64,000 nucleotides of DNA from Bacteroidota bacterium (GTDB lineage Bacteria > Bacteroidota > Bacteroidia > AKYH767-A > OLB10), in assembly GCA_046303115.1 (NCBI GenBank), contig JBKCGZ010000100.1, forward strand, positions 10,928 to 74,927. Direction: 5' to 3'. This document shows, piece after piece, positions 3,018-57,640 of the stretch (its first letter is position 1; each line of letters starts with the position of its first letter). The translations under genes and the position numbers were made by a program. Below the pieces are notes generated by a model. The model worked only from the letters and a program-made list of their open reading frames with translations, was not told where the DNA came from and ran no database searches.

Positions 3018-3023
3018 TGAGCA

Positions 3024-3158: not shown

Positions 3159-3265
3159 GTAAAATCATATTGATGTAACCTGCTGAAATAAAGCTATATC
3201 AAAAAAAGTTGTTGGCTTTACTTGTTTCATTGTTATTGTAAATAGTATCTTAGCAATCTCGTAGA

Positions 3266-3523: not shown

Positions 3524-3542
3524 TTTTTTTGGGGATTAGGGT

Positions 3543-7185: not shown

Positions 7186-7221
7186 TGTACCAAGGTAAAT
7201 AAAAGCTTTTAAAAATTAAAT

Positions 7222-9270: not shown

Positions 9271-9276
9271 AAAAAA

Positions 9277-9561: not shown

Positions 9562-9689
9562 TTGCGTTAGAATATGATTCAATGCAAATATTTTAAAAGA
9601 AAACTTGATTTCTTCAACGATTATCAAATCATAACGTTAACATAAATTTCTCTTACAGATTTTATAACGTTAATTTAATATCATAAAGA

Positions 9690-11237: not shown

Positions 11238-11336
11238 TTTATTTTATGATTTTCGGATACAAACCTATAAAAAGCATAGGATTTATCTGCGATAATCCTT
11301 CACAATTTGACATTATACCTATTCATGTCAATTTTC

Positions 11337-11366
11337 TTTGTAGCTACAGATTATATTTTACCTTTG
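11337..11366 (+). promoter_or_regulatory. Candidate Bacteroidota promoter (TTTG-N18-TACCTTTG) for the TonB-dependent receptor operon
   Basis: -33 TTTG at 11337-11340 and -7 TACCTTTG at 11359-11366, 20 nt upstream of the ATG at 11386. Confidence 0.5.
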
Positions 11367-11385
11367 TCATCCCTTAAAACTAATC

Positions 11386-14160
11386 ATGAAAATAAAGTAT
11401 TTAATTCGATTCGCATTGATCTGCTTCATGCTGACGCCTATGATGTTGATGGCACAAAACGCCACACTCAAAGGAAGTGTGAAAGATGCAGAAACACAGG
11501 ATGCTTCTGCTAGTGCAGCTATCAATCTGAACAATCCAGGCTTCAGAGCTAATGTTTTGTCAAACCCTGATGGGACATTTGAATTTAAAGATGTTCCGTA
11601 TGGAAAATACACGCTAACAATTGACCTGGATGGATTCAATCAGACAATTTTAAGTGTAGAGGTTAATCAACCAGTAGTTGAAGTATCTGTTGTAAACATG
11701 GTGCACATTGATTTAGGTGACGATAATATCCCAACTGTTTCACTAGGCGACGATCAGGTTAAAGAAACTACTAATGCCAATGTTAGTGGAGTTTTAACTT
11801 CTACAAGAGATCCATTTGAGTCTGCGAGTATGTTTACTTTCAGCGCAGCACGCTTTCGTCCGCGTGGTTATAACTATGAAGACCAAACTTTCATGAACGG
11901 ATTATTAATGGAAGATCTTGTGAATAGTCGGGGTTTATATAGCGCATGGAGCGGGTTAAACGATGTGGTTAGAAGTCGTGAGAGCACTTACGGACTTAAC
12001 CCATCTACCTATGGATATGGTGGATTAAATGGATCAAATAATATTGATGCTAAAGCGAGCAGACAGCGTAAACAATTACAAGTTTCCTATGCTCTATCAA
12101 ACAGAACATATGATAACCGTTTAATGGCAACTTATGGAACCGGACTAATGAAAGGAGGTTGGTCATTTGCAGCATCTATCAGTAGAAGATGGGCTGATGA
12201 AGGTTATGTTCAAGGAACATTCTACAATGGGATTTCTTGGTTCGCCAGTATCGAGAAAAGATTTGGAACGAACCATAGCATCAGTTTAACCCAATTTGGT
12301 GCAAATACTGTCAATGCAAGAGCTACTGCTGCTATCCAAGAAGTTTATGATTTAGCGGGTAGTAATTATTACAATCCTAGTTGGGGATTCCAAAACGGAG
12401 AAAAAAGAAGTGCAAATATTGGACGTCAGGCAAGTCCTTTAACAATTTTGGCTCACGAATGGAAAATTGACAGTAAATCAGATTTAAAAACATCAGTAGG
12501 CTATCAATTTGGTTCTTACAGTGTAACTGGACTTGATTGGTTCAATGCTCCTGACCCTCGTCCGGATTTTTATCGTCGTCTACCAAGCTACATCGACGAT
12601 CCTACCATGGCTGCACAAGCCGCTTATTTATGGCAGACAGATGAATCATATCGCCAAATTGACTGGGAGAATTTATATGCTGTAAATATGAATAACTACG
12701 AAACGATTGATAGTGCCAATGGAATTGCAGGCAATTCAGTTTATGGTAAGAGAAGCCGCTATATTGTCAGTGAAAGAGTTCAAGATACAAAGCGCTACTC
12801 CCTATCATCCACTTACAATAGTACTATCAACGACAATTTAATTGTTACTGCAGGATTAAACATTCAGCATCAAGAAACAGAATATTACCGTCGTGTAAAT
12901 GATTTATTAGGAGGTGACTTTTATGTTGACTTAAACCAATTTGCTGAATTAGCTTATCCTGACAGTTTCCAGGTATTACAAAACAATCTTGATGTACCTA
13001 ACAGAATTCTTCAGGTGGGTGACAAATACGGATACAATTACAAAGCAACTGTTAATAGAAAAGGATTCTGGATTCAGCCACAATTTAAGTTTAACCGTGT
13101 AGATGGATTTGTTGGAATTCAGGTGATGAATACATCTTATTTCCGTACAGGATATTATCGTAGTGGTGTTTTTCAGGATAATTCATTGGGAGAGTCTACT
13201 CAAGAAACATTTAACAACTACGGAATCAAGGCTGGAGCAACTTACAAAATCAACGGTAGAAATTATATTTTCTTAAATGCTTCTAATGAAACAAGAGCAC
13301 CATTATTTGAAGATGTATTTATTTCTCCACGTACTCGCGACTTAACTAATCCGAATGCTACAAATGAGAAAATTATGTCTATTGAAGCAGGTTATTTGTT
13401 GAGAGCTCCAAAAACAAAAATAAGAGCTACTGCCTATTACACACAGATGAATGATGGAATTAACAACCTTACATTCTTCCATGAAGATTACAGAACATTG
13501 GTGAACTACTCATTGAGTAATATGGATAGAAGACATGTTGGAGTTGAGATTGGCGCAGATCATAATTTAGGACAAGGTTTTTCGGCTTCAACGGCAATAG
13601 CAATTGGGCAGTATTTTTATACTGACCGAATGAATGCCATTATTACTGCCGATAACACTTCACAACTATTAGCAGAGAATGAGACTATTTATTCGAAAAA
13701 CTTTTATGTAGCTGGTGGGCCGCAATCGGCTTATACATTAGGTTTAAGATACCGTGCAAAGAAATTCTGGAATGCTTATTTGAACTTGAATTATTTCGAC
13801 AAAATCTGGTACGACTTCAATCCTGCTCGTCGTACTGTGACTGGTGTAGCGCCTTACAGTGAAGGAGCTATTCGTGAAGCAATTATTGATCAGTTGCAGG
13901 CGAGTGGACAGTTTACAATGGATATTTCTTTTGGTAAGTCATGGAAGTTAAACAACTACTTTCCATCAATGAAAAAGCAAACTTTCTTCTTGATAAATAT
14001 TGGCGTTAATAACGTATTAAACAATACTAACATTATTACTAACGGTTACGAACAGCTGCGATTTGACTTTGCTGAAAAAGATATTAACAAATTCGCACCT
14101 AAGGCTTACTATGGCTTCGGAACTAACTATTTTGTAAACTTCACCCTTAGATTCAATTAA
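11386..14160 (+). CDS. TonB-dependent receptor-like outer membrane protein with N-terminal carboxypeptidase-regulatory-like domain
   Basis: 924 aa. Signal peptide, then GSVKDAETQD...GKYTLTIDLDGF (CarboxypepD_reg-like), a plug-like segment and a long beta-rich region ending FTLRFN. No SusD partner is present. Confidence 0.75.
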   Translation: MKIKYLIRFALICFMLTPMMLMAQNATLKGSVKDAETQDASASAAINLNNPGFRANVLSNPDGTFEFKDVPYGKYTLTIDLDGFNQTILSVEVNQPVVEVSVVNMVHIDLGDDNIPTVSLGDDQVKETTNANVSGVLTSTRDPFESASMFTFSAARFRPRGYNYEDQTFMNGLLMEDLVNSRGLYSAWSGLNDVVRSRESTYGLNPSTYGYGGLNGSNNIDAKASRQRKQLQVSYALSNRTYDNRLMATYGTGLMKGGWSFAASISRRWADEGYVQGTFYNGISWFASIEKRFGTNHSISLTQFGANTVNARATAAIQEVYDLAGSNYYNPSWGFQNGEKRSANIGRQASPLTILAHEWKIDSKSDLKTSVGYQFGSYSVTGLDWFNAPDPRPDFYRRLPSYIDDPTMAAQAAYLWQTDESYRQIDWENLYAVNMNNYETIDSANGIAGNSVYGKRSRYIVSERVQDTKRYSLSSTYNSTINDNLIVTAGLNIQHQETEYYRRVNDLLGGDFYVDLNQFAELAYPDSFQVLQNNLDVPNRILQVGDKYGYNYKATVNRKGFWIQPQFKFNRVDGFVGIQVMNTSYFRTGYYRSGVFQDNSLGESTQETFNNYGIKAGATYKINGRNYIFLNASNETRAPLFEDVFISPRTRDLTNPNATNEKIMSIEAGYLLRAPKTKIRATAYYTQMNDGINNLTFFHEDYRTLVNYSLSNMDRRHVGVEIGADHNLGQGFSASTAIAIGQYFYTDRMNAIITADNTSQLLAENETIYSKNFYVAGGPQSAYTLGLRYRAKKFWNAYLNLNYFDKIWYDFNPARRTVTGVAPYSEGAIREAIIDQLQASGQFTMDISFGKSWKLNNYFPSMKKQTFFLINIGVNNVLNNTNIITNGYEQLRFDFAEKDINKFAPKAYYGFGTNYFVNFTLRFN

Positions 14161-43584: not shown

Positions 43585-44835
43585 TTAACTATTAGATCGT
43601 ATCGCCTCCACTGGATCTAACCTCGAAGCCTGATAAGCGGGAACTAATCCTGAAATAACACCGACTATAACGGATACGGATAGCCCCAAAACAATATTAC
43701 CAGCACTTAATGGTAAATTGAGTCCTGCATATTTACCCGCAATGGTTCCGAGGTAAACGAGGAATAAACCAATGAGTCCGCCTAAAACACAAAGGAATAC
43801 CGACTCTGATAAAAACTGAAACAGAATAAAAAAGTTCTTTGCGCCTAATGATTTTTGAATTCCGATAATGGTAGTTCTTTCTTTCACTGATACGAACATA
43901 ATATTAGCAATACCAAAACCCCCAACAAGAATACTAAAACTTCCGATAATCCATCCTGCTTTAGTAAGCATTGCAAATAAACTATTCAGCTGATTAGAAA
44001 TTAATTTTGTCTCGTTCAAAGCAAAGTTATCTTCTTCTGCGGGACGCAAACGACGAATAGAACGCAAGTTTCCTTTTAACTCATCCATTAACTGTCCGTT
44101 GGAAATACCTGGCTTGCCTTTCACCATAATGCGTGGCTCTAACTGATCGCTTCTGATATCTAAAAAGCGACGTGCGAAATTTACAGGCACCATCACCGAT
44201 TTATCTTTTGAGTTCCCCAACATACTTTCCCCCTCTTTAACAAAAACACCAATCACAATAAACTTTCTTCCTTTCACAGTGATACTTTTTCCGACAGGAT
44301 CCACATTAGGAATTAATGTAGAAGCTACATCGGCACCAATGATGGCTACAGGCGAACCAGCAGAAGATTCATTCTCGGTAAAATAACGACCGTTAGATAA
44401 ATTGATCGTATATAGCTTTTCATAATCGTGAGAAACCATATCGACCGTTGCACTTTCAACTGCATTTTTTCCTGATTTCACTGTTACATCGTTCGCCGTT
44501 GCGCTGAAGGCAAAACTTTCTCCTAAGGCGCTACGTTGCTTCAGCAATTCCATTTCTTTGTAGTTGGCTGTTGGACGCACCCAATATTTCCACCACGGAA
44601 AATCCTTCCCAAACTCCCACGGCCATTTCTCAACGAATACCACATTACTCCCCATCTCATTTACGCTGCTACGAATTTTATTTTCTAATCCATCTACCGC
44701 AGTAAAAACAGCAATGATGGCAAAAATTCCGATGGTAACTCCTAATAGCGAAAGAATAGTACGCAGCTTATTCACCACCAATGCATGAATGGCCATCAGC
44801 ACGCTCTCGCGTAAAAGTCGTAGGTAAATTTTCAT
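43585..44835 (-). CDS. ABC transporter permease, MacB/FtsX family
   Basis: 416 aa. N-terminal TM, large periplasmic MacB-PCD-like region, and a C-terminal FtsX 3-TM bundle. No adjacent ATPase. Confidence 0.8.
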   Translation of the reverse strand: MKIYLRLLRESVLMAIHALVVNKLRTILSLLGVTIGIFAIIAVFTAVDGLENKIRSSVNEMGSNVVFVEKWPWEFGKDFPWWKYWVRPTANYKEMELLKQRSALGESFAFSATANDVTVKSGKNAVESATVDMVSHDYEKLYTINLSNGRYFTENESSAGSPVAIIGADVASTLIPNVDPVGKSITVKGRKFIVIGVFVKEGESMLGNSKDKSVMVPVNFARRFLDIRSDQLEPRIMVKGKPGISNGQLMDELKGNLRSIRRLRPAEEDNFALNETKLISNQLNSLFAMLTKAGWIIGSFSILVGGFGIANIMFVSVKERTTIIGIQKSLGAKNFFILFQFLSESVFLCVLGGLIGLFLVYLGTIAGKYAGLNLPLSAGNIVLGLSVSVIVGVISGLVPAYQASRLDPVEAIRSNS

Positions 44836-44974: not shown

Positions 44975-46141
44975 ATGAAAACAAAACTCCAATTTTTAAC
45001 TACACTATTTTTCATTGTTTTTTGCAATGGAAATTTGTTTGCGCAGCAAATAGGTCATACTACATTTACCTATACAGATGCATCGCGAAATAACAGACAA
45101 ATACAAACGGAAATTTATTATCCTGCAACAGCAGCAGGAAATAATACAGCGATTGCTCCGGGAACTTTTCCTGTGGTAGTTTGCGGACATGGATTTGTAA
45201 TGACAACGAGTGCTTATCAAAATATATGGACAGCACTTGTGCCCGAAGGTTATATCGTTGCGCTCCCAACAACAGAAGGTGGATTCGCCCCCAATCATGC
45301 TAATTTCGGGCTCGACTTAAAGTTTTTGGTTAATGAAATTAAAAGCGCTGGGGCAGGAACATCAGTTCCTCCATCCTCTGTAGGAAACACCTCTGCTATT
45401 ATGGGACATTCGATGGGTGGTGGATCTTCTTTTCTGGCAGCGGCTAATGATACTACTATTTCTACCATGATATCTTTTGCGGCCGCAAATACAAATCCCT
45501 CATCAATAAGCGCTGCACAGAATATTATTGTTCCTACATTAATATTTAGTGGCACCAACGATTGTGTAGCTCCTCCAGCGCCGCAACAAGATATTATGTA
45601 TGATTCAACAAGTGCTGCTTATAAAACTCAGATTTATATTTCAGGTGGTGGACATTGTTATTTTGCTGATAATAATTTTAATTGCTCATTTGGTGAAGCG
45701 ACCTGCTCCCCTTCTCCAACAATTACTCGCACCCAACAACAATCTGCAACAGCTGATTTTTTAAAATCGTGGTTAGCCTACTATCTGAAAGGTGATTGTA
45801 ATAAAGCACAGGAATTTCAAGACTCACTCGCTTTAAGTGCAAGAATTACTTATCGCCAAAGCCAATCGATTGCATGTACATCATCAAGCATAGAAAATAT
45901 TTCTTCGGATAATATTTTTTCTGTTTATCCCAATCCTGCGAAAAGCATCATTAACGTAAAAGTAAATTCAAAAGCAGTAGATACATTTTATACAATCAAT
46001 GATATTGCTGGTAGAATTGTTTTACGTGGAAAAGTGGATGCAGAAAATATAACGATTGCAGTTGATCAGTTATCTGCAGGATTATACATTTTAAACCTGA
46101 AAAATAAATCACAACAGCAATTCAAAATAATTAAAGATTAA
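44975..46141 (+). CDS. Secreted PETase/cutinase-like serine esterase (dienelactone-hydrolase-type alpha/beta fold) with T9SS C-terminal sorting domain
   Basis: 388 aa with a signal peptide (...LFAQ), a GHSMGG nucleophile elbow (Ser codon 45410-45412), NDCVAP (Asp) and GGGHCYF (His). The last ~80 aa (FSVYPNPAKSIINVKV...GLYILNLKN...FKIIKD) match the Por_Secre_tail pattern. Confidence 0.75.
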   Translation: MKTKLQFLTTLFFIVFCNGNLFAQQIGHTTFTYTDASRNNRQIQTEIYYPATAAGNNTAIAPGTFPVVVCGHGFVMTTSAYQNIWTALVPEGYIVALPTTEGGFAPNHANFGLDLKFLVNEIKSAGAGTSVPPSSVGNTSAIMGHSMGGGSSFLAAANDTTISTMISFAAANTNPSSISAAQNIIVPTLIFSGTNDCVAPPAPQQDIMYDSTSAAYKTQIYISGGGHCYFADNNFNCSFGEATCSPSPTITRTQQQSATADFLKSWLAYYLKGDCNKAQEFQDSLALSARITYRQSQSIACTSSSIENISSDNIFSVYPNPAKSIINVKVNSKAVDTFYTINDIAGRIVLRGKVDAENITIAVDQLSAGLYILNLKNKSQQQFKIIKD

Positions 46142-46169
46142 ATGCTGAACTAATTTCTTAATAATACCT

Positions 46170-46248
46170 AATAAAAAAATCCCCGCTAACGCAGGGATTT
46201 TTTATTTACTCAGAAATTATTTTCTTATTTCTTATCTTGCGACATTAA
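46170..46248. repeat. Direct repeat, left copy (terminator hairpin + orphan SPFH 3'-end stub)
   Basis: ~95% identical to 54418-54495 in the same orientation. It includes hairpin ATCCCCGCTAACGCAGGGAT flanked by A- and T-runs, and it doubles as the terminator of the esterase gene. Confidence 0.9.
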
Positions 46249-46429
46249 TTTGCCTAAATATTTAGCGTTTACCCTTCAATAAAAGTAAAAAAGGTTTTAC
46301 AACTTTTTGGTAACAATACTTTAAAGTAATAGCTTTGTTTGACGCGTAAATAATCATCTACTACTAGCCATTAGTGGCAGTATAGTAAGTAAGCAAGTAA
46401 GAAATAATCAAGCAGTTAGGCGAACATAA

Positions 46430-47287
46430 ATGAACGAAACCATATACAATGACAAAGAAAAAAACGCCATTCGATTTTCTGACTTTAAAAAGTTAGAAAC
46501 AGATTGTCCGTTCGCTGGCTTGGGAGTAAAATATGTGGCTTCCGGTGAAGAAATTTATTATGCCAACAACAAAAAATACAATGTCAAAGTTGGAGAATAC
46601 ATTATTGGAAATGAGTTTACCAAATCACTGGTTAAAATTAACAGCGAAGAATCGGTTCAAGGACTTTGTATCGATATTTCATCTGAAATAATTTCAGAAG
46701 TAGCAGAATTTCACGATCTCAATGGTTCGGAGTTGAAAGAGTTCTTACTCTCCGATCAGTTTTTCGTCAACAGATACAATGTTAAAAATACCAGCTTGGG
46801 TTATACACTATACGATATTAACCAAAAGATTAAATCAGGAACATTTACTAATGATTTGCAACAAAACGAGTTGTTTTATAGTCTTGCAGAATCCATTATT
46901 ACCGACCAACGTTTTGTGTTTGATCATTTGACAAAACTGGATTTTAAAAAGAACTTAACTAATGAAGAAGTTTTTAGAACAGTACTCAATGCCAAATCAT
47001 ACATTGATGAAAATTTAACCGCGAATCTTTCGTTGGAAAACATTGCAATCCAAACAGGAATTTCAAAATATCACTTTATTCGTGTTTTTAAATCAGCTTT
47101 CGGTATTTCGCCCTATCAATATCAAAACCGAAAACGACTTGAACTAGCTAAATCAGACTTAGCACAAGGAAATGATATCTTTTTTACCGCAATTCTTTAT
47201 GGATTTGCTGATGTCCCAGCTTTCTCAAAAGCATTTAAACAGCAATTTGGACAAACTCCAGGATCGATAAGAAAAAGCAATTTTTGA
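46430..47287 (+). CDS. AraC family transcriptional regulator
   Basis: 285 aa with a C-terminal double HTH (LSLENIAIQTGISKYHFIRVFKSAFGISPYQY...FADVPAFSKAFKQQFGQTP). Confidence 0.88.
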   Translation: MNETIYNDKEKNAIRFSDFKKLETDCPFAGLGVKYVASGEEIYYANNKKYNVKVGEYIIGNEFTKSLVKINSEESVQGLCIDISSEIISEVAEFHDLNGSELKEFLLSDQFFVNRYNVKNTSLGYTLYDINQKIKSGTFTNDLQQNELFYSLAESIITDQRFVFDHLTKLDFKKNLTNEEVFRTVLNAKSYIDENLTANLSLENIAIQTGISKYHFIRVFKSAFGISPYQYQNRKRLELAKSDLAQGNDIFFTAILYGFADVPAFSKAFKQQFGQTPGSIRKSNF

Positions 47288-47334
47288 CAAATGAAACTAC
47301 GAATGATGTTTTTTCTTTGAAACAAAAATTTTTA

Positions 47335-49695
47335 ATGTTTCGAAAACTATCCTTACTCGTCCTATTCATTATTTCTCTTGATGTTAATGCTCAGCTACAG
47401 CGTAAGCCTATTTGGGGCGCACGAATGGAATACGTTTCGGAAAATGGTAGTGCTGGATGTAAAGTGCAAAAAGTGTCGAGAGGGACAAGTGTTGCGTTAA
47501 AATTACAAGAAAAAGATCTTGTTTTAAAAATAGGAGATTCCAACTTTACATCTACAAACGATTTCATTAATTTATTTTTAAACTACTTGCCTAATCAAGA
47601 AGTTAAACTAACAGTACTGCGCGACAAAAAGAAAATAACTTTAAAAGCAAAAGCTGTTGCTCGTCCTTTTGAAACAGATGATAATGCAACCGTAATTTAT
47701 GATGAGGCCTCCTATAAAAATGGACAATTGCGTGTTATTATCAATAAACCGTTTAAAGAAAATAAAATGCCTGCTATGTTATTCATTCCAGGATATACAT
47801 GCAGCAGTATCGATGATTTGCCAAATAACCATCCTTACAAACGTATTGTGGATGCTTACGTAGATGCAGGTTATGTAACATTACGTATTGAAAAAAGCGG
47901 ATTAGGCGATAGCAAAAACACACCACCCTGCGAGTCGTGTGATTTACTGGATGAAATTGAAAATTTTGAGTCCGGGTTAAAAAAATTAAAGTCACTACCA
48001 TATGTCGATACCAATCAAATTATCGTTGTTGGACATTCGATGGGTGGAATTATAGCACCAGCAATTAGTGCTAAACATCAAGTTGCAGGTGTTGTTGTTT
48101 ATGGTACAACTGCTAAATCGTGGTTTGAATATCAAATCGAAATGTACCGCGTACAAAATGCATTAGCAGGAATGAATCCGATTGAAGTAGAGCAATCCGT
48201 AATAGAACAATACGATTTGAATTATCGCTACTTCGTAAAGAAAGAGAAACTCGAAGATCTTGCCAAGGATCCAAATATTGATAGTGTTTTACGCGCTACT
48301 TGGGAATACGATGGTAAAGGGAAAATTTACTCTCGAAACGCAGAGTATTGGAGACAGATACAAGATTATCCGCATTTAGAAAATTGGAAAAATACGACTG
48401 CAAAAGTTTTAGTTCAATTTGGCGAATCCGATTTTCAAGCATTTTCAAAAAGCGATCATCAGCAGATTGTAAATACGGTGAATCATTTTCATCCTGGTAA
48501 TGCTACATTAATGACATATCCATCGACTGATCATTATTTTGCTAAATCAGGATCTATGCAAGAGGCATATGACAAGTTTACGAATGGCAAAATTCAACAG
48601 TTATTCGATGAGTATAACAATGAAGTTGGATTATCTGCTGTAAGATGGAGCAATGAAATTTTATCAAAAAAGAATACCGTTAAACATTCAGAAAATGGTT
48701 GGAAAAAATTAAGTACTGATAGCTATCCAGGAAAGCAAGATGATATTACGTTCATCAATGAAATGGAAGGTTGGTATGTAAACGGCTATGGTAGTATTTA
48801 TCATACGCAAAATGGCGGAACAACTTGGGAAAAACAATTGGAATTAAAAGGAACATTTTTTCGCTGCATTGCTTTTGTTGATAGTTTACGAGGATTTGCA
48901 GGAACGGTTGGCACTGACTACTTTCCAAATGTTACGGATACCATTCCGTTATATGGGACTAACGATGGTGGTAAAACATGGAGTCCTGTAAATTACAAAG
49001 GGCCCTATGTAAAAGGACTTTGTGCTATTGAAGTTGTTAAAGAGCAATTCATCAATCATGGAAAAACTGATTACAAAATTCATATTTATGCAGTTGGTCG
49101 CGTTGGAAGTCCTGCAAATAGAATGGTGTCGCACGATGGTGGTTTAAGCTGGACATCATATAGTATGAACAACGATTGTAAAATGCTTTTTGATATAAAA
49201 ATGTTAGATAAGAATACTGGTTATGTTTGTGCAGCAACTGATGAAGATATTGAGAAATCAAATGCACTTATTTTAAAAACCATCGATGGAGGAATAACCT
49301 GGAAAAAAGTGTATCAATCCAATAGACCATATGAAACAACATGGAAGATTTCGTTTCCATCTGATAAGGTTGGTTATGTAACAATTCAATCATACAATCC
49401 TGATTCGTTAGCAAAACAACAACGCATTGCTAAAACAATTGATGGAGGTGAAACCTGGAAAGAAATCAATCTAGTTGAAGATGCGAATGCAAGGGAATTT
49501 GGTATTGGGTTTATCGATGAAAACCACGGCTTTGTTGGCACCATGAATAGTGGTTACGAAACTAAAGATGGCGGCTTAACATGGACGCCAATTAATCTAG
49601 GAAAGGCCTGCAATAAAATCAGGATTTATAAAAATGCAAATGGGAAAATTTATTGTTATTCAATTGGTGTAGATGTGATGAAGGGAGAGTTTTAA
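47335..49695 (+). CDS. Secreted PDZ-like / alpha-beta hydrolase / BNR (Asp-box) beta-propeller fusion protein
   Basis: Start moved to the ATG giving signal peptide MFRKLSLLVLFIISLDVNAQ. It has a PDZ-like segment, a GHSMGG hydrolase core, and six SxDxGxTW-type Asp-boxes in the C-terminal ~330 aa. Confidence 0.7.
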   Translation: MFRKLSLLVLFIISLDVNAQLQRKPIWGARMEYVSENGSAGCKVQKVSRGTSVALKLQEKDLVLKIGDSNFTSTNDFINLFLNYLPNQEVKLTVLRDKKKITLKAKAVARPFETDDNATVIYDEASYKNGQLRVIINKPFKENKMPAMLFIPGYTCSSIDDLPNNHPYKRIVDAYVDAGYVTLRIEKSGLGDSKNTPPCESCDLLDEIENFESGLKKLKSLPYVDTNQIIVVGHSMGGIIAPAISAKHQVAGVVVYGTTAKSWFEYQIEMYRVQNALAGMNPIEVEQSVIEQYDLNYRYFVKKEKLEDLAKDPNIDSVLRATWEYDGKGKIYSRNAEYWRQIQDYPHLENWKNTTAKVLVQFGESDFQAFSKSDHQQIVNTVNHFHPGNATLMTYPSTDHYFAKSGSMQEAYDKFTNGKIQQLFDEYNNEVGLSAVRWSNEILSKKNTVKHSENGWKKLSTDSYPGKQDDITFINEMEGWYVNGYGSIYHTQNGGTTWEKQLELKGTFFRCIAFVDSLRGFAGTVGTDYFPNVTDTIPLYGTNDGGKTWSPVNYKGPYVKGLCAIEVVKEQFINHGKTDYKIHIYAVGRVGSPANRMVSHDGGLSWTSYSMNNDCKMLFDIKMLDKNTGYVCAATDEDIEKSNALILKTIDGGITWKKVYQSNRPYETTWKISFPSDKVGYVTIQSYNPDSLAKQQRIAKTIDGGETWKEINLVEDANAREFGIGFIDENHGFVGTMNSGYETKDGGLTWTPINLGKACNKIRIYKNANGKIYCYSIGVDVMKGEF

Positions 49696-49835
49696 ATTAT
49701 GACTACTCTAAAAATTATTAAATTAAAATCAATTTTAATTTTTACACTACTTTTGAATTGACAAAATATGATTAACAAAGACATTGAAACAATAATCTAC
49801 AACTAAAAAATATCATCAATACAACTACTCAAAAT

Positions 49836-50708
49836 ATGGATTTAGTAATAAAAAATCTCAACAAGCAATATAGCAATGGTGTACATGCCATGAACGATGT
49901 AACTCTTACCATCAACAAAGGTATGTTTGGTTTGCTTGGGCCCAATGGCGCTGGTAAATCTTCTTTGATGCGCACCCTGGCAACACTTCAAAATGCTGAT
50001 AGTGGCTCTGTAATGCTTGGTGATATAGATGTTTTAAACGACCAAGAATCAGTAAGGAAAATCTTGGGCTATTTGCCACAAGAGTTTGGTGTATATCCGA
50101 GAACATCGGCTGTTGACTTACTTGAACATTTAGCTATACTAAAAGGTTTTAGCAACGGCAGTGAGCGAAAGGAAATGGTCGATCAATTGCTCAACAAAGT
50201 AAATCTATATGAACATCGTAAAAAAGCGGTGAGTAGTTATAGCGGTGGAATGCGCCAACGATTTGGTATTGCACAGTGTTTAATTGGCAATCCGAAATTG
50301 GTAATTGTAGATGAACCTACAGCAGGATTAGATCCAGGTGAGCGTAATCGCTTCTATAATATCTTAAGTGAAATTGGAGAGAATATCATTGTGATTTTAT
50401 CTACGCATATTGTACAAGATGTAAGAGAACTTTGCACACAAATGGCAATCATGAACAAGGGAAAAGTCTTGTTTTGTGGCAATACTGATGACGCCATACT
50501 TCAAATAAAAGGAAAAGTTTGGGAACGAAAAGTGGATAAAGATCAATTACAAGATTTTCAAACTAATTATAAAATTATTTCCAGCAAATTGGTTGGAGGA
50601 AAACCTTTAATTCATGCATTTTCTGAAAATGAATTAGGCAACGGATTTATCAAAGCGGAAGAAAATTTAGAAGATGTATTTTTCGCAAAACTGAATGAAT
50701 TAGTTTAA
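49836..50708 (+). CDS. ABC transporter ATP-binding protein
   Basis: 290 aa. Walker A GPNGAGKSS, signature YSGGMRQR, Walker B LVIVDEP. Confidence 0.93.
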   Translation: MDLVIKNLNKQYSNGVHAMNDVTLTINKGMFGLLGPNGAGKSSLMRTLATLQNADSGSVMLGDIDVLNDQESVRKILGYLPQEFGVYPRTSAVDLLEHLAILKGFSNGSERKEMVDQLLNKVNLYEHRKKAVSSYSGGMRQRFGIAQCLIGNPKLVIVDEPTAGLDPGERNRFYNILSEIGENIIVILSTHIVQDVRELCTQMAIMNKGKVLFCGNTDDAILQIKGKVWERKVDKDQLQDFQTNYKIISSKLVGGKPLIHAFSENELGNGFIKAEENLEDVFFAKLNELV

Positions 50709-50726
50709 TCACCAACCAAAAAAATT

Positions 50727-53700
50727 ATGTGGAATTTTATAAAACACGAATGGAAATATTGGCTCAGTTCGCCAATGACATGGATCTTTTTATTAATCAT
50801 CACTATTTTGGTGATGGGTGCTGTATCATCTGACAGCGTCACTATTGGTGGTGGTGTAGGTAGCGTTCATAAAAATGCGCCATTTGTAATTCAAACTTAT
50901 TACGGAGTTATGTCGCTCATTTGTTTGTTAATGACAACTGCATTTATGAATGCTTCAGCCAACAGAGACTTTTCAAGTGGTATGTATCAATTTGTTTTTT
51001 CATCGCCTATCAAAAAACGAGATTATTATTTCGGAAAATTTATTGGAGCTGCAAGCATAGCAGTATTGCCACTTTTAGGTGTTTCTATTGGTGCATTGAT
51101 TGGACCGTTGATGCCATGGGCAGAACCAAACCGCTATGGCGACGTTGTTTGGAGCGGGCATTTGCAAGGCCTAATCACATTTGGAATTCCAAATACAATT
51201 ATTGCTGCTGTACTTTTGTATTCGTTAGCCATTATTTTTCGAAGCAATATTGTTTCATTTGTTGGAGCAATGCTGATATTAGTATTGTATGCTGTATCTG
51301 CAGGATTTACTAGAGATATTGAAAAAGAATGGTTGGCAAATATTTTAGATCCATTTGGCTTTCGTCCTGAAACAATCATTTCAAAATACATGACGGTGGA
51401 TGAAAAAAATGCTCATGGCGTTCCGCTAGTTGGTGCTTTATTGATTAATCGATTGGTATGGCTATCAATAAGCTTTTTGATTTTAATTGGGGCTTACTTC
51501 AAATTTTCATTCAGCGTAAAAAATGAATCAGCTAAAAAAGCAAAAACGAAGGATACAAAAATTGAATCGTTAAATAGTACTAATCGTATTTATACAGCAA
51601 ACACTGCTAGTCAATTCTCGCTTTCTGCTTTGTGGTTTTTAATAAAGTTTGAAACTAAAGCAATCATTAATAACTCTACGTTCATCATCATCGTTGTTAT
51701 TGGCTTAATGAATTTAGTCGCATCGTTAACAACATTTTCAGGTGGCTATGGAATAGAGCAATATCCTGTTACCTATAATGTAATTGATATCATTAGCGGT
51801 TCATTTTATTTATTCCTTATTGCCATTATTACTTTTTATACTGGTGTGTTAGTATGGAAGGAACGCGATGCGAAAATAAATGAAATACAAGACGCTACTC
51901 CTATTCAAACTTCACTGCTGTTCGTTTCGAAATTAGCAGCTATCATTTTTTCGATTGCCTTGATTTTGTCTTGCACAATATTAATTGGCATAATCGCACA
52001 AGCATGTATGGGATATCATCGTTATGAAATTGATGTATATGTTAAATCCTTGCTAGTAAAAGATTTACTTTCTTTCTCTTTCCTTGTAATCATTTCTTTG
52101 TTTTTCCATTACCTAATCAACAATCGCTATATCGCTTACTTCGCATTTGTAGCCTTTGTTATTTTGAATTCATTTATTTGGGGTGTTTTAAAAATCAATT
52201 CTAATCTTGTAAAATTTGGAGGAACTCCCACTGTTACCTATTCCGACATGAATGGATTTGGTCCGTTTGTACCTTCAAGTATATGGTTCAATATTTATTG
52301 GACAATTGCTTCTGTGTTGATTGGCTTTGTAATTTTTTCATTCTATATACGAGGTAAAGAAACTGGCTTTAGACATCGACTTGTAAACTCAAAATATTTG
52401 TTGACCAAAAATAAAATCGCCATTGGCTTATGTGCAATTGTGTTCGTGCTGTGTTGCAGTTTCATGTATTACAATACTAAAGTGGTAAACGAATATACTT
52501 CTGGTCAAGAGCAAGAAAACGATCAAGTTGATTATGAAAAAAAGTATAAAAAATATGAGACCTTGGTTCAGCCACGTTTCTATAAATACAATTACAATAT
52601 CGATTTGATGCCATACGAGCGCAGCATGAGTGCCAATGTAGAAGCTTGGGCAAGAAATATTTCTAATCAACCGATAACTGAATTACATTTTACAATGCCT
52701 CAGGTACCTGATTCAGTAAAAATATTAATCGAAGGCAGCAAATTAAAATTGAATGATAGTCGATTAGGATATCGCATATATACGTTAGTAAAACCTTTGC
52801 AACCCAACGATTCAATCATGATTAAATTTGATGTGAGTCGTATCACCAAAGGATTTGAGAACGAAGTAACATTTACGCAACTTACGCAAAATGGAACATT
52901 CTTTAACAACAGAGATATATTACCCACTTTTGGCTATGAAAACGCATATGAAATAAGCGATAAAAATAAGCGTATAAAATTAAAGTTGCCTCCTCGATTA
53001 CGCATGCCTAAATTGAATGAACAAGATTTAAAAGCAAGAGCAAATACATATATCAGCAACTGTTCTGACTGGGTGGAATTAAACACAACTATCAGTACCA
53101 CTAAAGACCAAATAGCAATTGCTCCTGGCAGTTTAATTAAGTCTTGGGAGGCTAATGGCAAAAAATATTTCAATTATCAGCTCGAACAAAAATCATTGGA
53201 TTTCTATTCGTTCATTTCGGCGAAATATGAAGTAAAAAGAAAACGTTGGAATGGAATTGATTTGGAAGTTTATTATATCAAAGAGCATGAATACAATGTA
53301 TCCAACATGCTCAATAGTTTACAAAAATCAATTGACTACTACACGAGCAATTTTGGGAAGTATTACCACAAGCAATGTAGAATTATTGAGTTCCCACGTT
53401 ATGGAAGTTTTGCGCAAGCATTCCCAGGTACTATGCCTTATAGCGAAGGAATTGGTTTTATCATTGATGAAAGAAACGTTACTAAAGATGATATTGACCA
53501 AGTGTTCTATGTGGTAGCGCATGAAATGGCACATCAATATTGGGCGCATCAACTATGTGGCGCTAATATGCAAGGTAGTGAAATGATGAGTGAAGGATTT
53601 GCACAATATTCTGCTTTGATGGTTATGGAAAAAGAATACGGCAAGGATAAAATGAAGAAGTTTTTGAAGTACGAAATGGATGGTTATTTAAGAGGAAGAA

Positions 53701-54302
53701 GCAGTGAGTTTGAAGCAGAAAGACCTTTAATTAAAACAGAATCGCAACAGTATATTCATTATCAAAAAGCGAGTGTAGTTATGTACTATTTAAAGGAAAT
53801 GATTGGCGATAAGAAAGTGAATGAAGCCTTAAAATCCCTGATAGATTCTTTTGCATACAAGCAACCACCCTATCCAACATCAATTTCAGCTGTGAATGCT
53901 TTTAGAAAAGTAACACCTGATAGCCTACAATATCTAATTGATGATATGTTTGAAAACATCACTATTTTCTCCAACAGAACAATAGACACAAAGTATAAAA
54001 AGGTAGGTCAAGAATATGAAGTTACAATAACAACTACATCTGAAAAGTTCAGAGCTGATTCTTTAGGAAATGAAAAAAATAGAATTTTGAATGATTATAT
54101 TGATGTGGGCATCTTCGCAGAGCCAAGTAATAAAAATAACTTGGGTAAAGTTCTAGTTTATCAACGCATGAGAATAAATAAAAAAGATAACACTTTTGTA
54201 TTTAGAACGAAAGAAAAACCATATCAAGCAGGTATTGATCCATACAACTATTTAATTGATCGAATTCCAGATGATAATATTAAGAAGCTGGAGGAATTGT
54301 AG
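50727..54302 (+). CDS. Fusion protein: tandem ABC-2-type permease (~13 TM) + C-terminal M1-family gluzincin peptidase domain
   Basis: 1191 aa with about 13 hydrophobic segments in aa 1-580. The C-terminal part holds HEMAH (53520-53534) followed by SEGFA, the M1 signature. Confidence 0.8.
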   Translation: MWNFIKHEWKYWLSSPMTWIFLLIITILVMGAVSSDSVTIGGGVGSVHKNAPFVIQTYYGVMSLICLLMTTAFMNASANRDFSSGMYQFVFSSPIKKRDYYFGKFIGAASIAVLPLLGVSIGALIGPLMPWAEPNRYGDVVWSGHLQGLITFGIPNTIIAAVLLYSLAIIFRSNIVSFVGAMLILVLYAVSAGFTRDIEKEWLANILDPFGFRPETIISKYMTVDEKNAHGVPLVGALLINRLVWLSISFLILIGAYFKFSFSVKNESAKKAKTKDTKIESLNSTNRIYTANTASQFSLSALWFLIKFETKAIINNSTFIIIVVIGLMNLVASLTTFSGGYGIEQYPVTYNVIDIISGSFYLFLIAIITFYTGVLVWKERDAKINEIQDATPIQTSLLFVSKLAAIIFSIALILSCTILIGIIAQACMGYHRYEIDVYVKSLLVKDLLSFSFLVIISLFFHYLINNRYIAYFAFVAFVILNSFIWGVLKINSNLVKFGGTPTVTYSDMNGFGPFVPSSIWFNIYWTIASVLIGFVIFSFYIRGKETGFRHRLVNSKYLLTKNKIAIGLCAIVFVLCCSFMYYNTKVVNEYTSGQEQENDQVDYEKKYKKYETLVQPRFYKYNYNIDLMPYERSMSANVEAWARNISNQPITELHFTMPQVPDSVKILIEGSKLKLNDSRLGYRIYTLVKPLQPNDSIMIKFDVSRITKGFENEVTFTQLTQNGTFFNNRDILPTFGYENAYEISDKNKRIKLKLPPRLRMPKLNEQDLKARANTYISNCSDWVELNTTISTTKDQIAIAPGSLIKSWEANGKKYFNYQLEQKSLDFYSFISAKYEVKRKRWNGIDLEVYYIKEHEYNVSNMLNSLQKSIDYYTSNFGKYYHKQCRIIEFPRYGSFAQAFPGTMPYSEGIGFIIDERNVTKDDIDQVFYVVAHEMAHQYWAHQLCGANMQGSEMMSEGFAQYSALMVMEKEYGKDKMKKFLKYEMDGYLRGRSSEFEAERPLIKTESQQYIHYQKASVVMYYLKEMIGDKKVNEALKSLIDSFAYKQPPYPTSISAVNAFRKVTPDSLQYLIDDMFENITIFSNRTIDTKYKKVGQEYEVTITTTSEKFRADSLGNEKNRILNDYIDVGIFAEPSNKNNLGKVLVYQRMRINKKDNTFVFRTKEKPYQAGIDPYNYLIDRIPDDNIKKLEEL

Positions 54303-54417
54303 GTTATTTTTAAAGCGACATTTAAAAAAGTAATTAGAAAATAAATAAAAAATAATTTCCACTTTTAAATACAGTAATTCACAAATAGAAATAGTGTAAA
54401 CTTAGTTATTAAAGCTC

Positions 54418-54495
54418 AATAAAAAATCCCCGCTAACGCAGGGATTTTTTATTTACTCAGAAATTATTTTCTTATTTCTTGTCTTCCGACATCAA
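54418..54495. repeat. Direct repeat, right copy (terminator + genuine 3' end of SPFH gene)
   Basis: Matches 46170-46248. The minus strand encodes ...LMSEDKK* as the real C-terminus of the 54472..55392 gene. Confidence 0.9.
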
Positions 54496-55392
54496 CGTAT
54501 CCATGCCCATCATCTGACGCATTGTTTTTTGCATTCCTTCAGGAGAGCCATCTAAGAATAAAACATTTCCTTTTCCGTACTCTGCAAAATTCTTAATTGC
54601 TTCTGTCCACATCGAAAACATAATCATCGATGTATCAAGATTTGCCTGTTGCATTTCACGCGCTGCATTCTGCATACCCTTAGCCACCTCTTCTCTAAAC
54701 AACGCAACTCCTTGTCCGCGTAACTGCGCAGCCTCACGCTCTGCTTGCGCTGCAATTTTAATTGCGTTACCTTCTGCTTCTGCCGATTTTGTTTTAGTAA
54801 TTAATAAAGCTTGTCCTTCGTTTTCAGCTGCTGCCTTTAAATTGTTAGAAGCAACCACTTTACTCATCGATACCATTACTGCTTCATCAAATGTAATATC
54901 GTTGATTTGTAAATCTTGTAAGTGATATCCCCACTCTTCAATCACATTATCAATTTGCTCTTTTACGTGATCTACGATTTCACGACGAAGTCCTAATACT
55001 TCCGATTGCTTTTTAGTAGCAACGAAAGCACGAATGTTTCCTTCGATAGTTCTGATTAATGCTTGCATTAAATTCTTTTCATCGATGAACTTAAATGCTA
55101 CTTTCTTGATTGTCTCTTCATCGCTATCGATAACCGAAAATAAAATCATCGATTTAAAATACACATTCGCTTGATCGACAGTTACCGCCTGAAACTCTAA
55201 CTCGACTGAACGATTCTGAGTAGAAATTCTTTTGAATACTGTTTCGATGAAAGGAATGATAAAATTTAAACCCGGACGAATAATTCGCTGATATTTCCCG
55301 AAGATGGTGATTACGGAAACATTTCCTTGCTGGACTGTTCTCAAGCCCATGAATAGAATCACTACGATTCCAATAATAATTGCAGTTGACAT
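54472..55392 (-). CDS. SPFH domain / band 7 family protein
   Basis: 306 aa with an N-terminal TM, an SPFH core (GNVSVITIFGKYQRIIRPGLNFIIPF) and an Ala/Glu-rich coiled-coil. Confidence 0.88.
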   Translation of the reverse strand: MSTAIIIGIVVILFMGLRTVQQGNVSVITIFGKYQRIIRPGLNFIIPFIETVFKRISTQNRSVELEFQAVTVDQANVYFKSMILFSVIDSDEETIKKVAFKFIDEKNLMQALIRTIEGNIRAFVATKKQSEVLGLRREIVDHVKEQIDNVIEEWGYHLQDLQINDITFDEAVMVSMSKVVASNNLKAAAENEGQALLITKTKSAEAEGNAIKIAAQAEREAAQLRGQGVALFREEVAKGMQNAAREMQQANLDTSMIMFSMWTEAIKNFAEYGKGNVLFLDGSPEGMQKTMRQMMGMDTLMSEDKK

Positions 55393-55407
55393 ATGATAAA
55401 TATTAAA

Positions 55408-55989
55408 TTAATTCCATTTTAGTGTTCCAATCATTTTCATGATATCTTCCCTTGCATATTTAATGGCAGGAGCTAAACTATCGGCATTAGGAGCTGCATT
55501 AAAATAAAGTGCACCTCTTAAAAAATGATTAGTACTATCCGTTACAAAAAACTGAATTGGGGATGCTGCATCTCCTCCTATTTCATAAAGTATCCCTCCT
55601 ACATTGTCATTTACTTTCAATACGCTTTCATTGATTGAACTTGCCCGAGAAGTATGCTTGTATACTAATGTGCGTGTATCCTCTGCGTATTTATTAAAAT
55701 CACCATTCAATTTTTTATACGTCAAATAAATCTGTCCGTTTAACTTAGGCATTACGATATAATACCAAAAAGGCTCTGATAAACTATTGGTATCAGGAAT
55801 AGCTACTGCTGTTGTTGAAATATCGAATGAATAAGGACAATTGGCAGGTTTAAATTCCTTGTAAGCATGTGCAGGCAATGTAATTCGATAATATCCTTTT
55901 GGCTTCGGAACTCCATTGTCTTCATTATCGCCACAAGAAATAATTACCAATGCTAAAAAAACAAGTACAACAAGCTTCTTAAAATTCAT
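55408..55989 (-). CDS. gldD: Gliding motility lipoprotein GldD
   Basis: Start at MNFKKL... with lipobox IISC, followed by PKPKGYYRITLP, as recalled for GldD. Position near ssb/mutY is typical for Bacteroidota. Confidence 0.65.
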   Translation of the reverse strand: MNFKKLVVLVFLALVIISCGDNEDNGVPKPKGYYRITLPAHAYKEFKPANCPYSFDISTTAVAIPDTNSLSEPFWYYIVMPKLNGQIYLTYKKLNGDFNKYAEDTRTLVYKHTSRASSINESVLKVNDNVGGILYEIGGDAASPIQFFVTDSTNHFLRGALYFNAAPNADSLAPAIKYAREDIMKMIGTLKWN

Positions 55990-56040
55990 TGCACAAAGAT
56001 GCAAAAAGAAAGGCATCCGAAGATGCCTTGAAATAAAATC

Positions 56041-56454
56041 TTAAAAAGGTTCAATCGAGCCTTGATCAGTTATAGGTGGCTCTTCTAGTCCGTGATTAGC
56101 GTCATGATTATTGTTTTCGTTTTCACGCTTGCTCAACATTGTCATATTTTCGGCAATAATTTCAGTAGCATATTTTTTTACCCCATCTTTTTCCCAACTG
56201 CGTGTACGCAATTTGCCTTCAATAAAAATCATATGTCCTTTCCGTAATTTTAGCTTTTCGGCTGCTTCTGCCAAACCACGCCACAGAACAATATTATGCC
56301 ATTCGGTTTGATCCTGGCGCTGTCCATCCTTGTTCTTAAAATACTCAGTGGTTGCCAATGGAAACTTCGCTACCATTATACCACCTTCCATGTGTCTGAA
56401 CTCAGGGTCTTTTCCTAAGTTACCGATTAAAAATACTTTGTTTACTCCCGACAT
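56041..56454 (-). CDS. ssb: Single-stranded DNA-binding protein
   Basis: 137 aa. OB-fold (NKVFLIGNLGKDPE...TEWHNIVLWRGLAE) and an acidic C-terminal tip ending IEPF. Confidence 0.93.
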   Translation of the reverse strand: MSGVNKVFLIGNLGKDPEFRHMEGGIMVAKFPLATTEYFKNKDGQRQDQTEWHNIVLWRGLAEAAEKLKLRKGHMIFIEGKLRTRSWEKDGVKKYATEIIAENMTMLSKRENENNNHDANHGLEEPPITDQGSIEPF

Positions 56455-56590
56455 AATATATAGTTTGATAGTTTTCTAAATTACTATGTTCGGCTTGGCT
56501 GTGTATAGCAAATATATGCTAATTAGTTAAATGAAAAAACAAATTTCAACTCGATTTGAAAATATGACAATTAAGTGTATACACTCATTA

Positions 56591-57640
56591 CTAGTCCTCG
56601 CTCTCGAGGTATTTAACAATTAACTGAGGCATTCCATAATCACCTAGTTGGCTCCATGGAACCTTTATCATGTTAGCGTCTTTAGCGGTTGAAACACTTT
56701 CCATATTTATCCACCAAAACTTAGCAAAAATTACTTGATGTGATAAAACGTGTTTTACAATAGCGCTTGACTTGACCATTTTATGCGAATTGGTATTTAA
56801 GTAATTGGCAACTTCTGATTTAGAAAGATCCAGCTTGTTTTTATTCTTTGTCGCTGACTCTATCAACGGAAATTGATACAACCCTTGCCAGATATCCTTT
56901 CCCTCTCTTTTCTGAAGGATGGTATTTTTTTCGTCTGACAGGATAATAAAATCAAAATAACGGTTTCGTGTTTTTGTCTTTTTTGACTTAACAGGATATT
57001 CACTTACGGTATTGGTCGCAAAGCTCTGACAATATTGATTAAAAGGACAAACGGAACAATCGGGGTTGGAAGGTTTGCACTGCATAGCGCCGAACTCCAT
57101 CATTGCCTGATTAAACATTCCGGGATTGGATTTATCAATTAACTCATTAGCAAGCACAAAAAACTCTTTCTTCCCATTGGTAGAATCGATGGGGGTATTA
57201 ATTGCAAATATTCTGGAAAGGAAACGGTAAACATTTCCATCGACAACGGCATGAGGTAAATTAAAAGCGATGGAACCAATGGCGGCTGCAGTATAATCTC
57301 CTATTCCCTTTAGAGCACGTATTTGCTCATATTGATCAGGGAAAATTCCATTGTATTCATCTCTCACCACTTTGGCAGCGTCGTGTAAATTCCTTGCACG
57401 GGAATAATATCCGAGCCCTTGCCATAGACGCAAAACCTCTCGTTCATCTGCATTGGCAAGGTCGGTTACCTTTGGGAAGTTTTCCATAAACCGGAGCCAG
57501 TAAGGCATTCCCTGCTCGACCCTTGTTTGTTGTAAAATCACTTCCGAAAGCCAGATCGCATAAGGGTCATTTGTCCTTCTCCAGGGCAAATCACGCTGGT
57601 TAATGCGGTACCAATCCATTAAAATTTGGCTTAAATCCAT
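56591..57640 (-). CDS. mutY: A/G-specific adenine DNA glycosylase
   Basis: 349 aa. HhH-GPD (LKGIGDYTAAAI), 4Fe-4S Cys cluster (CKPSNPDCSVCPFNQYC) and a C-terminal NUDIX-like domain. Confidence 0.93.
   Translation of the reverse strand: MDLSQILMDWYRINQRDLPWRRTNDPYAIWLSEVILQQTRVEQGMPYWLRFMENFPKVTDLANADEREVLRLWQGLGYYSRARNLHDAAKVVRDEYNGIFPDQYEQIRALKGIGDYTAAAIGSIAFNLPHAVVDGNVYRFLSRIFAINTPIDSTNGKKEFFVLANELIDKSNPGMFNQAMMEFGAMQCKPSNPDCSVCPFNQYCQSFATNTVSEYPVKSKKTKTRNRYFDFIILSDEKNTILQKREGKDIWQGLYQFPLIESATKNKNKLDLSKSEVANYLNTNSHKMVKSSAIVKHVLSHQVIFAKFWWINMESVSTAKDANMIKVPWSQLGDYGMPQLIVKYLESED

Follow-up and report, generated by a model that had tools for sequence, protein, structure and literature searches.

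Introduction

A 1200 amino acid (aa) protein of Myxococcus xanthus (Q1D520), described in 2013, in which 13 transmembrane segments of the ABC-2 type are followed by a C-terminal M1 zinc peptidase, is the founder of TCDB family 3.A.1.145; no function was assigned to this family, and export of an amino acid, derivative or metabolic product was suggested (PMC3924187). Here we describe a locus of this kind in a 64,000 nucleotide (nt) stretch of DNA from a Bacteroidota bacterium (hereafter, the window). It consists of two genes on the + strand, the first encoding a 290 aa ATP-binding cassette (ABC) ATPase (49836..50708) and the second, after a gap of 18 nt, a 1191 aa fusion of an ABC-2 type permease with an M1-type metallopeptidase (50727..54302). 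The open reading frames (ORFs) and Pfam matches bear out this layout, which was proposed in an initial annotation from the DNA alone and in which all coordinates and counts were right. That annotation also knew of no functional study of such proteins, and indeed no functional or structural study of the permease/M1 fusion was found in the full-text literature beyond the 2013 TCDB note.

Several other described systems resemble the locus in part. The Rv1217c-Rv1218c transporter (PDB 8k1m-8k1p), described as a multidrug efflux pump, similarly pairs one kind of ATPase with a permease whose two ABC-2 modules are fused in a single chain but has neither the 13th helix nor an extracytoplasmic enzyme. 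NosDFY (PDB 7o0y, 7qba), an ABC complex of type V, cooperates with a periplasmic protein; in this case, however, the periplasmic component, NosD, is a separate beta-helix protein, no peptidase is involved, and the complex is encoded in the nos cluster and matures a copper enzyme. PmtCD (PDB 6xjh, 9q1y, 9q2n), the phenol-soluble-modulin exporter, has an ABC-2 permease for amphipathic peptides, but this permease is a homodimeric 6 transmembrane (TM) protein from a Gram-positive bacterium that lacks a peptidase and exports its peptides intact.

Peptidase and ABC exporter are joined in one polypeptide also in the peptidase-containing ABC transporters (PCATs, e.g., PCAT1 and ComA), in which an N-terminal, cytoplasmic C39 cysteine peptidase attached to a type IV exporter cuts off the double-glycine leader before export. 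In the fusion, by contrast, the peptidase is C-terminal, predicted to be periplasmic, of the metallo-type and attached to a type V fold. In the type VII systems FtsEX and MacB, cytoplasmic ATP hydrolysis controls an extracytoplasmic hydrolase; these permeases have four TM segments, the first two of which are separated by a periplasmic domain, and the hydrolase controlled by FtsEX, an enzyme acting on peptidoglycan, is not part of the permease chain. Finally, FtsH is a membrane-anchored, ATP-powered HExxH zinc protease of membrane-protein quality control that combines AAA+ and family M41 domains, all of them cytoplasmic; the likeness of the fusion to FtsH is a functional analogy only, fold and family being unrelated.

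Family Membership and Distribution

A protein search retrieved 957 relatives of the fusion, the best 120 of which are all ~1191 aa long and 68-98% identical to it, and an exhaustive search of 50%-identity representatives yielded 1,898 clusters at E <= 1e-30. The best 150 of these 1,898 clusters are mostly full-length and colinear, with a median length of 1199 aa and identities down to 31%; a few of these 150 representatives are shorter and apparently partial, and the residue counts given below refer to those that cover the catalytic region. Members with a taxonomic name belong to many Bacteroidota orders, to Acidobacteriota (Thermoanaerobaculia, Acidiferrales) and to Gemmatimonadaceae (Gemmatimonadota), and across the orders of Bacteroidota the fusion retains 60-77% identity. 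The homologues carry the NCBI name 'ABC transporter permease/M1 family aminopeptidase', a designation that the initial annotation had correctly mentioned.

The window fusion has the architecture of TCDB 3.A.1.145 (1191 aa, 13 TM segments, M1 domain). Because the best 150 of the 1,898 clusters extend to 31% identity, it is very likely to belong to this family, the match to the founder Q1D520 being made by description. The window locus is a new member of an already catalogued, functionally uncharacterized family; what is newly added here is the family-wide sequence signature, the topology, the strict two-gene unit and the rejection of a link to an AraC regulator. No solved structure spans the whole architecture, as judged from comparisons with the PDB by sequence, profile and Foldseek. 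With respect to function, we tentatively favor, as the best of several candidates and at less than moderate confidence, ATP-driven extrusion of hydrophobic or amphipathic peptides that feeds a tethered, open-cleft endo- or oligopeptidase.

Conservation of the Two-Gene Unit

The gene neighborhoods were compared in 80 related genome loci, with 887 neighboring ORFs clustered de novo. In 72 of these loci, the ATPase gene is located directly 5' of the fusion gene, typically at a distance of 7-25 nt, and the encoded ATPases are 72-99% identical to that of the window; most of the remaining 8 loci have no upstream sequence. No third conserved partner, whether an adaptor, a precursor or an immunity protein, was detected among the 887 ORFs. 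The next most common cluster of neighbors, present in 14 of the 80 loci, reflects synteny specific to Flavobacterium and includes, e.g., a thioredoxin-reductase-like gene. In one member of Thermoanaerobaculia (Acidobacteriota) and one of Hymenobacter, the same pair is surrounded by unrelated genes, which in Hymenobacter include the housekeeping genes aspS, sodA and ndk. The nos genes are absent from the window neighborhood and from all 80 loci. The ATPase-fusion pair thus appears, as far as gene order can tell, to be a self-contained, obligate two-gene module.

In Flavobacterium laiguense, there are two complete paralogous ATPase-fusion pairs arranged head to tail (1602-6078 and 7013-11585 in the respective locus), and the first copy reads HEMGHQYWGEQ around the zinc motif. 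Such tandem pairs hint at substrate diversification in some lineages.

The neighborhoods bear directly on the possibility that the module exports one particular precursor made in the cytoplasm (e.g., a peptide, peptidyl-conjugate or amino-acid derivative), which the periplasmic peptidase then trims to its active or harmless form, as an outside-acting analogue of the PCATs. This scheme, an idea offered in the 2013 TCDB description (PMC3924187), is compatible with the exporter-type fold and ATPase and with a tethered peptidase that has intact catalytic residues (see below). Nevertheless, neither the 80 loci nor the distant members show a conserved precursor, biosynthetic or immunity gene next to the pair, and the level of conservation across the orders of Bacteroidota would be unusual for a system dedicated to a specialized product. 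Export-coupled maturation of this kind appears unlikely.

The M1-Type Peptidase Domain

The catalytic domain (aa 851-1076; 53277..53954, + strand) is a thermolysin-like domain of the M1 type, as indicated by the match to Peptidase_M1 (PF01433; aa 862-1046, 4.2e-15, 56.4 bits against a cut-off of 27.7) and by the alignment with ERAP2 (3e-9 for the single sequence and 7e-14 for the profile). The HEMAH motif (53520..53534, + strand), with the zinc-binding and catalytic residues H932, E933 and H936, is invariant in every representative covering the region. The same is the case for the third zinc ligand, E956 (53592..53594, + strand), which belongs to the SEGFA motif starting at aa 955, and for Y1012 of the HYQK motif (53760..53762, + strand), which aligns with the tyrosine of VSYNKG in ERAP2 and corresponds to the transition-state-stabilizing tyrosine of M1 enzymes. 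HEMAH and SEGFA are located exactly where the initial annotation had placed them, and its count of 19 residues between H936 and E956, in place of the 18 of the canonical M1 motif (HExxH-X18-E), also holds: this spacing is found in 147 of 148 family representatives and necessitates a one-residue gap in the alignment with ERAP2. The proposed check of the conservation of the zinc ligands and the tyrosine gave a clear-cut outcome, with H932, E933, H936, E956 and Y1012 all retained in 147 of the 147 representatives that cover the catalytic region, down to 31% identity. Three additional residues of the peptidase, E888, E907 and K1014, are invariant as well. The zinc peptidase site is intact, and the domain is predicted to be a catalytic gluzincin.

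The complete retention of the catalytic residues leads us to reject a pseudo-peptidase. It also makes it highly improbable that the M1 domain serves mainly in binding or scaffolding, e.g., as a receptor that recognizes a ligand or partner in the periplasm, with proteolysis being incidental. Non-catalytic homologues of M1 enzymes do exist, TAF2 being an example, and the fusion lacks two hallmarks of the classical enzymes, the GxMEN motif and the lid domain (see below), but the presence of all five catalytic and zinc-binding residues throughout the family would be unexpected for a pseudo-enzyme.

In M1 aminopeptidases, the glutamate of the GxMEN motif binds the free amino group of the substrate. 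In the alignment with ERAP2, the position of this motif is occupied by FAQAF (aa 895-899; 53409..53423, + strand), so that the glutamate is replaced by alanine. Family-wide, the equivalent segment reads [F/Y]-A-Q-[S/A]-F, and among 148 representatives, the position of the glutamate is taken by serine in 99, alanine in 46, glycine in 2 and tyrosine in 1, and never by glutamate. The loss of the glutamate that the initial annotation had claimed is accordingly a property of the whole family, whereas the segment to which it had been ascribed, PGTMPYSE, is five residues too far downstream and aligns with WGLITYRE, the segment that follows GAMEN in ERAP2.

The catalytic domain is flanked by domains that lack detectable Pfam families, as is the case for the domain I-like region and for the domain III-like region with its tail. 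The former comprises a stalk helix (aa 593-610) and a beta-sandwich (aa 617-850; together 52488..53276, + strand) that, in the structural model and by Foldseek, resembles domain I of M1 enzymes and is predicted to be periplasmic. The latter is a C-terminal beta-sandwich similar to domain III (aa 1078-1187; 53955..54302, + strand), which ends with the tail AGIDPYNYLIDRIPDDN, followed by the stop codon. The tail (aa 1165-1184), with the motif AGIDPxNxLIDRxPxDN, is fully or almost fully conserved even in homologues of only 30% identity, and P1165, G1169, D1171, D1178, R1179 and N1184 do not vary at all. In the model, the chain ends after the final beta-sandwich, and the helical domain IV (ERAP1_C-like lid), which closes the substrate cavity and is present in most although not all long M1 enzymes, is absent. 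A Foldseek search with the whole model retrieved IRAP, ERAP1, ERAP2 and APN over ~600 columns at E ~1e-19; the target-normalized template modeling score (TM-score) against M1 enzymes is only ~0.44 because domain IV of the targets remains unmatched. Thus, domains I-III superpose with those of the classical M1 enzymes (ERAP1, ERAP2, IRAP, APN, PepN), with which the fusion shares HExxH, the distal glutamate and the catalytic tyrosine; conversely, the classical enzymes possess GxMEN rather than FAQ[S/A]F, a spacing of 18 rather than 19 and domain IV, and are not anchored to a transporter. With GxMEN replaced throughout the family and domain IV missing, the peptidase is probably not a classical aminopeptidase, and as no family representative has the GxMEN glutamate, the designation 'M1 family aminopeptidase' is probably misleading.

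The ATPase and the Membrane Domains

The ATPase (ABC_tran, PF00005, 1.3e-29, 104 bits against a cut-off of 25) is the nucleotide-binding subunit of the system. Its translation contains a complete set of motifs, namely Walker A (GPNGAGKS), the Q-loop (LPQE), the signature (SGGMRQR), Walker B with the catalytic glutamate (VIVDEPT) and the H-loop (STH). The C-terminal extension of ~70 aa has no match in Pfam. The top NCBIfam models are those of the GldA and DrrA types, both below their own cut-offs. The best matches in the PDB are the nucleotide-binding domains (NBDs) of the eukaryotic ABCA lipid exporters ABCA1, ABCA3, ABCA4 and ABCA7 (E from 1e-55 to 1e-48), followed by OpuCA (6e-37), which is the best bacterial match, NosF and LptB (~1e-31; 1.7e-31 for NosF) and Rv1218c (6e-29).

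Hydropathy analysis of the fusion identifies 13 TM segments arranged as 6+6+1, and the same 13 helices are present in the full-length AlphaFold2 model, which was built with 67 homologues of 35-85% identity as input and has a predicted local distance difference test score (pLDDT) of 86.3 and a predicted TM-score (pTM) of 0.80. The two 6-TM modules are homologous to each other in a profile-profile comparison by hhalign (aa 1-270 versus aa 296-550, probability 96%, E 4.4e-9, 242 columns), so that the permease is an internally duplicated, single-chain pseudo-dimer; two ABC-2 modules and an additional helix are precisely what the initial annotation had envisaged. The first ABC-2 (type V) module (aa 1-265; 50727..51521, + strand), recognized by Pfam and in the model, consists of an amphipathic elbow helix (aa 2-14) and TM1-TM6, and contains the invariant residues N50, R80, D208, Y221 and R242. 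Its periplasmic loop between TM5 and TM6 (model helices at aa 198-229) forms short helices with conserved DPFG and Y..T....N motifs. An N-terminal amphipathic elbow helix and short helices at this place are typical of 6-TM modules of ABC-2 (type V) exporters. The second module (aa 299-545; 51621..52361, + strand), delineated by hhalign and the model, similarly consists of an elbow helix (aa 299-314) and TM7-TM12. The Pfam matches to ABC2_membrane_2, _3 and _4 (aa 2-187, 55-195 and 318-473, respectively) are weak: that of PF12679 to module 1 is marginal (27.9 bits against a cut-off of 27.2), and those of PF12698 and of PF12730 (aa 318-473, in module 2) are under their cut-offs. The modules are connected by a cytoplasmic linker (aa 266-298; 51522..51620, + strand) that is rich in lysine and arginine (K/R), disordered and weakly conserved, with pLDDT < 50 at aa 265-293 and, at aa 260-316, a mean column identity of 0.28 and 10.1 K+R per sequence.

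The 13th helix (aa 563-587; 52413..52487, + strand) is predicted to run from the cytoplasm to the periplasm and follows an amphipathic helix rich in K/R (aa 548-561); the loop before TM13 (aa 539-562) contains 7 K/R in the window protein and on average 5.9 K+R per sequence in 50 homologues. Altogether, in 50 homologues of 30-58% identity, there are 27.9 K+R in 161 cytoplasmic-loop residues versus 6.8 in 116 periplasmic-loop residues. This bias indicates an N-in, C-out topology and hence a periplasmic peptidase; the positive-inside rule and the AlphaFold model agree in placing the predicted peptidase domain in the periplasm, as had been deduced in the initial annotation from the odd number of TM segments. 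An even number of TM segments, with the peptidase in the cytoplasm, is excluded by the short, amphipathic and K/R-rich character of helix 548-561 and by the same charge distribution.

A Foldseek search with a model of the membrane part alone (pLDDT 83) identified the type V permeases NosY, Rv1217c and PmtD with a probability of 1.00 but E of only ~0.01 and, overall, target-normalized TM-scores of 0.55-0.67. NosY is the top structural match to one module (target-normalized TM-score of 0.59-0.67); Rv1217c aligns with both modules over ~600 columns (0.50-0.55, target-normalized); and the TM-score of PmtD is ~0.65, with a weak profile match (E 0.009). No matches to the FtsX or MacB_PCD domains (PF02687, PF12704), or to C39 or ABC_membrane, were detected in the fusion by Pfam. 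The Pfam results and the type V structural neighbors exclude kinship with the type VII (FtsX/MacB) systems or with PCATs.

Conservation of the periplasmic loops of the transmembrane domains equals or exceeds that of the TM helices (mean column identity of 0.41-0.57 versus 0.32-0.48). In these loops, N50, D208 and Y221 are invariant, and P52, P209-G211, P347, Y505, S506 and D507 reach a conservation of 90% or more. On the cytoplasmic side, the conserved R80-D81 (after TM2) and E379-R380 (after TM8) occupy equivalent positions in the two modules. These are the positions at which type V transporters carry coupling helices, from which we infer that two copies of the ATPase would dock on each fusion chain, one per module. 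The conserved periplasmic loops, the short, confidently modeled stalk and the pTM of 0.80 suggest that the peptidase packs against the outer face of the transporter.

These features are also relevant to a different scheme, in which nothing crosses the membrane: the ATPase cycle would move the helices and the periplasmic loops, and these in turn would open, close or reposition the tethered peptidase. The outcome would be ATP-gated cutting of periplasmic or outer-membrane proteins, akin to the control of hydrolases by FtsEX or to the operation of NosDFY, making the system a periplasmic counterpart of FtsH. NosY, the closest solved membrane domain, drives a periplasmic partner, and the high conservation of the loops and the shortness of the stalk are in line with transmission of movement. 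Moreover, the outer face of the transporter could functionally stand in for the missing lid domain IV, and the invariant C-terminal tail could be a docking element. Mechanotransmission, the main rival of the reading favored here, is nonetheless somewhat less likely than the latter: the fold is of type V rather than of type VII, the type of the classical mechanotransmitters FtsX and MacB; the other close relatives, Rv1217c and PmtD, as well as the ABCA relatives of the ATPase are true exporters; and no conserved partner or substrate gene is located nearby in the 80 loci.

Expression Signals and Flanking Genes

A candidate promoter for the pair is located at 49748..49755 (+ strand), 81 nt 5' of the start codon of the ATPase gene, within the pair's own 127-nt upstream spacer. 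The call is a consensus match: the sequence TACTTTTG matches TAnnTTTG, which we take to be the Bacteroidota -7 promoter consensus. Across the whole window, this motif is depleted, with 54 occurrences against 91 expected from shuffles, and many copies are found just 5' of ORF starts (e.g., those at 3499, 11359, 15832, 19984, 37661, 40572, 46330, 49748 and 57703). This distribution fits use of the motif as a Bacteroidota -7 promoter element. At the other end, in the spacer that separates the fusion gene from the convergently oriented SPFH gene, there is a hairpin flanked by a run of A and a run of T (54418..54453, not assigned to either strand; -16.7 kcal/mol, z = -7.25), with none of 200 shuffles folding equally well; this hairpin probably acts as an intrinsic terminator in both directions, marking the end of the two-gene unit. 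Further 3', core genes for SPFH/Band 7, GldD, SSB and MutY (54472-57640, - strand) and also for HU and RNase G are present.

The initial annotation had assigned the pair to a putative islet controlled by an AraC regulator. This assignment is not supported, given that the pair has its own promoter-like site, its own probable terminator and core genes downstream, and that an AraC gene adjoins the pair in only 2 of the 80 loci. The gene for the 803-aa hydrolase found upstream in the window accompanies the pair in 4 of the 80. In a locus from a 99%-identical relative (L001), this hydrolase gene is located ~2 kb from the ATPase gene, versus ~140 nt in the window, and the SPFH/gldD/ssb/mutY block is ~3.7 kb farther downstream of the pair than in the window, so that both flanks are variable even among close relatives. 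Control by AraC is therefore rejected as a property of the system, on the strength of these counts and the different spacing in L001.

The 803-aa protein itself (47284-49695, + strand; translation probably begins at the Met at ~47335) has an unusual combination of domains: a probable signal peptide, a PDZ domain, an alpha/beta-hydrolase domain (S9/S33-like) and a C-terminal BNR/Ycf48-like beta-propeller. Just 5' of the AraC gene, there is a gene for a PETase/dienelactone-hydrolase-like esterase (44975-46141, + strand) with a Por_Secre_tail, the C-terminal sorting domain of type IX secretion. Still farther 5' of the pair, a flanking core envelope gene (43585-44835, - strand) encodes a LolC/E-like permease that, unlike the fusion, is a true MacB_PCD/FtsX protein. 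The G+C content across 46000-56000 is slightly lower (0.31-0.36) than in the flanks (0.36-0.40).

Proposed Function

The reading that we tentatively favor, extrusion of peptides into a tethered peptidase, can be outlined as follows. The transporter would extract hydrophobic or amphipathic peptides, such as leftover signal or membrane peptides or membrane-active antimicrobial peptides, from the inner membrane or the cytoplasm. These peptides would be passed to the tethered, open-cleft peptidase, which would cut them as endo- or oligopeptidases do, and not in the manner of an aminopeptidase. In effect, ATP binding and hydrolysis would be coupled to proteolysis outside the cytoplasm. Export of hydrophobic or amphipathic cargo is favored because this is the cargo of the relatives Rv1217c and PmtD and of the ABCA-like NBDs, NosY being the exception. 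A position of the peptidase at the exit of the transporter is suggested by the covalent tether and the conserved periplasmic loops. The strong conservation and the housekeeping neighbors make a substrate of general envelope maintenance more plausible than one peculiar to individual strains.

Several observations weigh against this scenario. NosY, the best neighbor of the membrane domain, comes from a machine that is thought to work by mechanotransmission. There is no precursor-peptide or immunity-type gene linked to the pair that would point directly to a peptide cargo. The loss of the GxMEN glutamate is no proof of endopeptidase activity, considering that the invariant E888 or E907 might anchor the N-terminus of the substrate. 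The tandem duplication in F. laiguense is more easily reconciled with substrates that diversify than with one housekeeping substrate.

Concluding Remarks

The near-constant length of ~1200 aa, the invariant catalytic residues and the obligate ATPase partner argue for a conserved envelope function of the family. Its members can be recognized by a distinctive signature, namely HExxH-X19-E, FAQ[S/A]F in place of GxMEN, the lack of a lid domain, the 6+6+1 arrangement of TM segments and the strict two-gene unit. It is conceivable, if rather uncertain, that the family represents a new class of envelope machines in which an ABC transporter uses ATP from the cytoplasm to supply or gate a zinc protease that is covalently tethered to it in the periplasm. 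The periplasm contains no ATP, and we know of no ATP-dependent periplasmic protease. If this proposal is correct, diderm bacteria would possess an energy-dependent protease beyond the inner membrane, where there is no ATP. This functional counterpart of FtsH in the periplasm might be used to clear membrane-embedded peptides such as signal-peptide remnants or membrane-active antimicrobial peptides; and should ATP hydrolysis prove to be coupled to proteolysis, this would be a new way of using ABC transporters.

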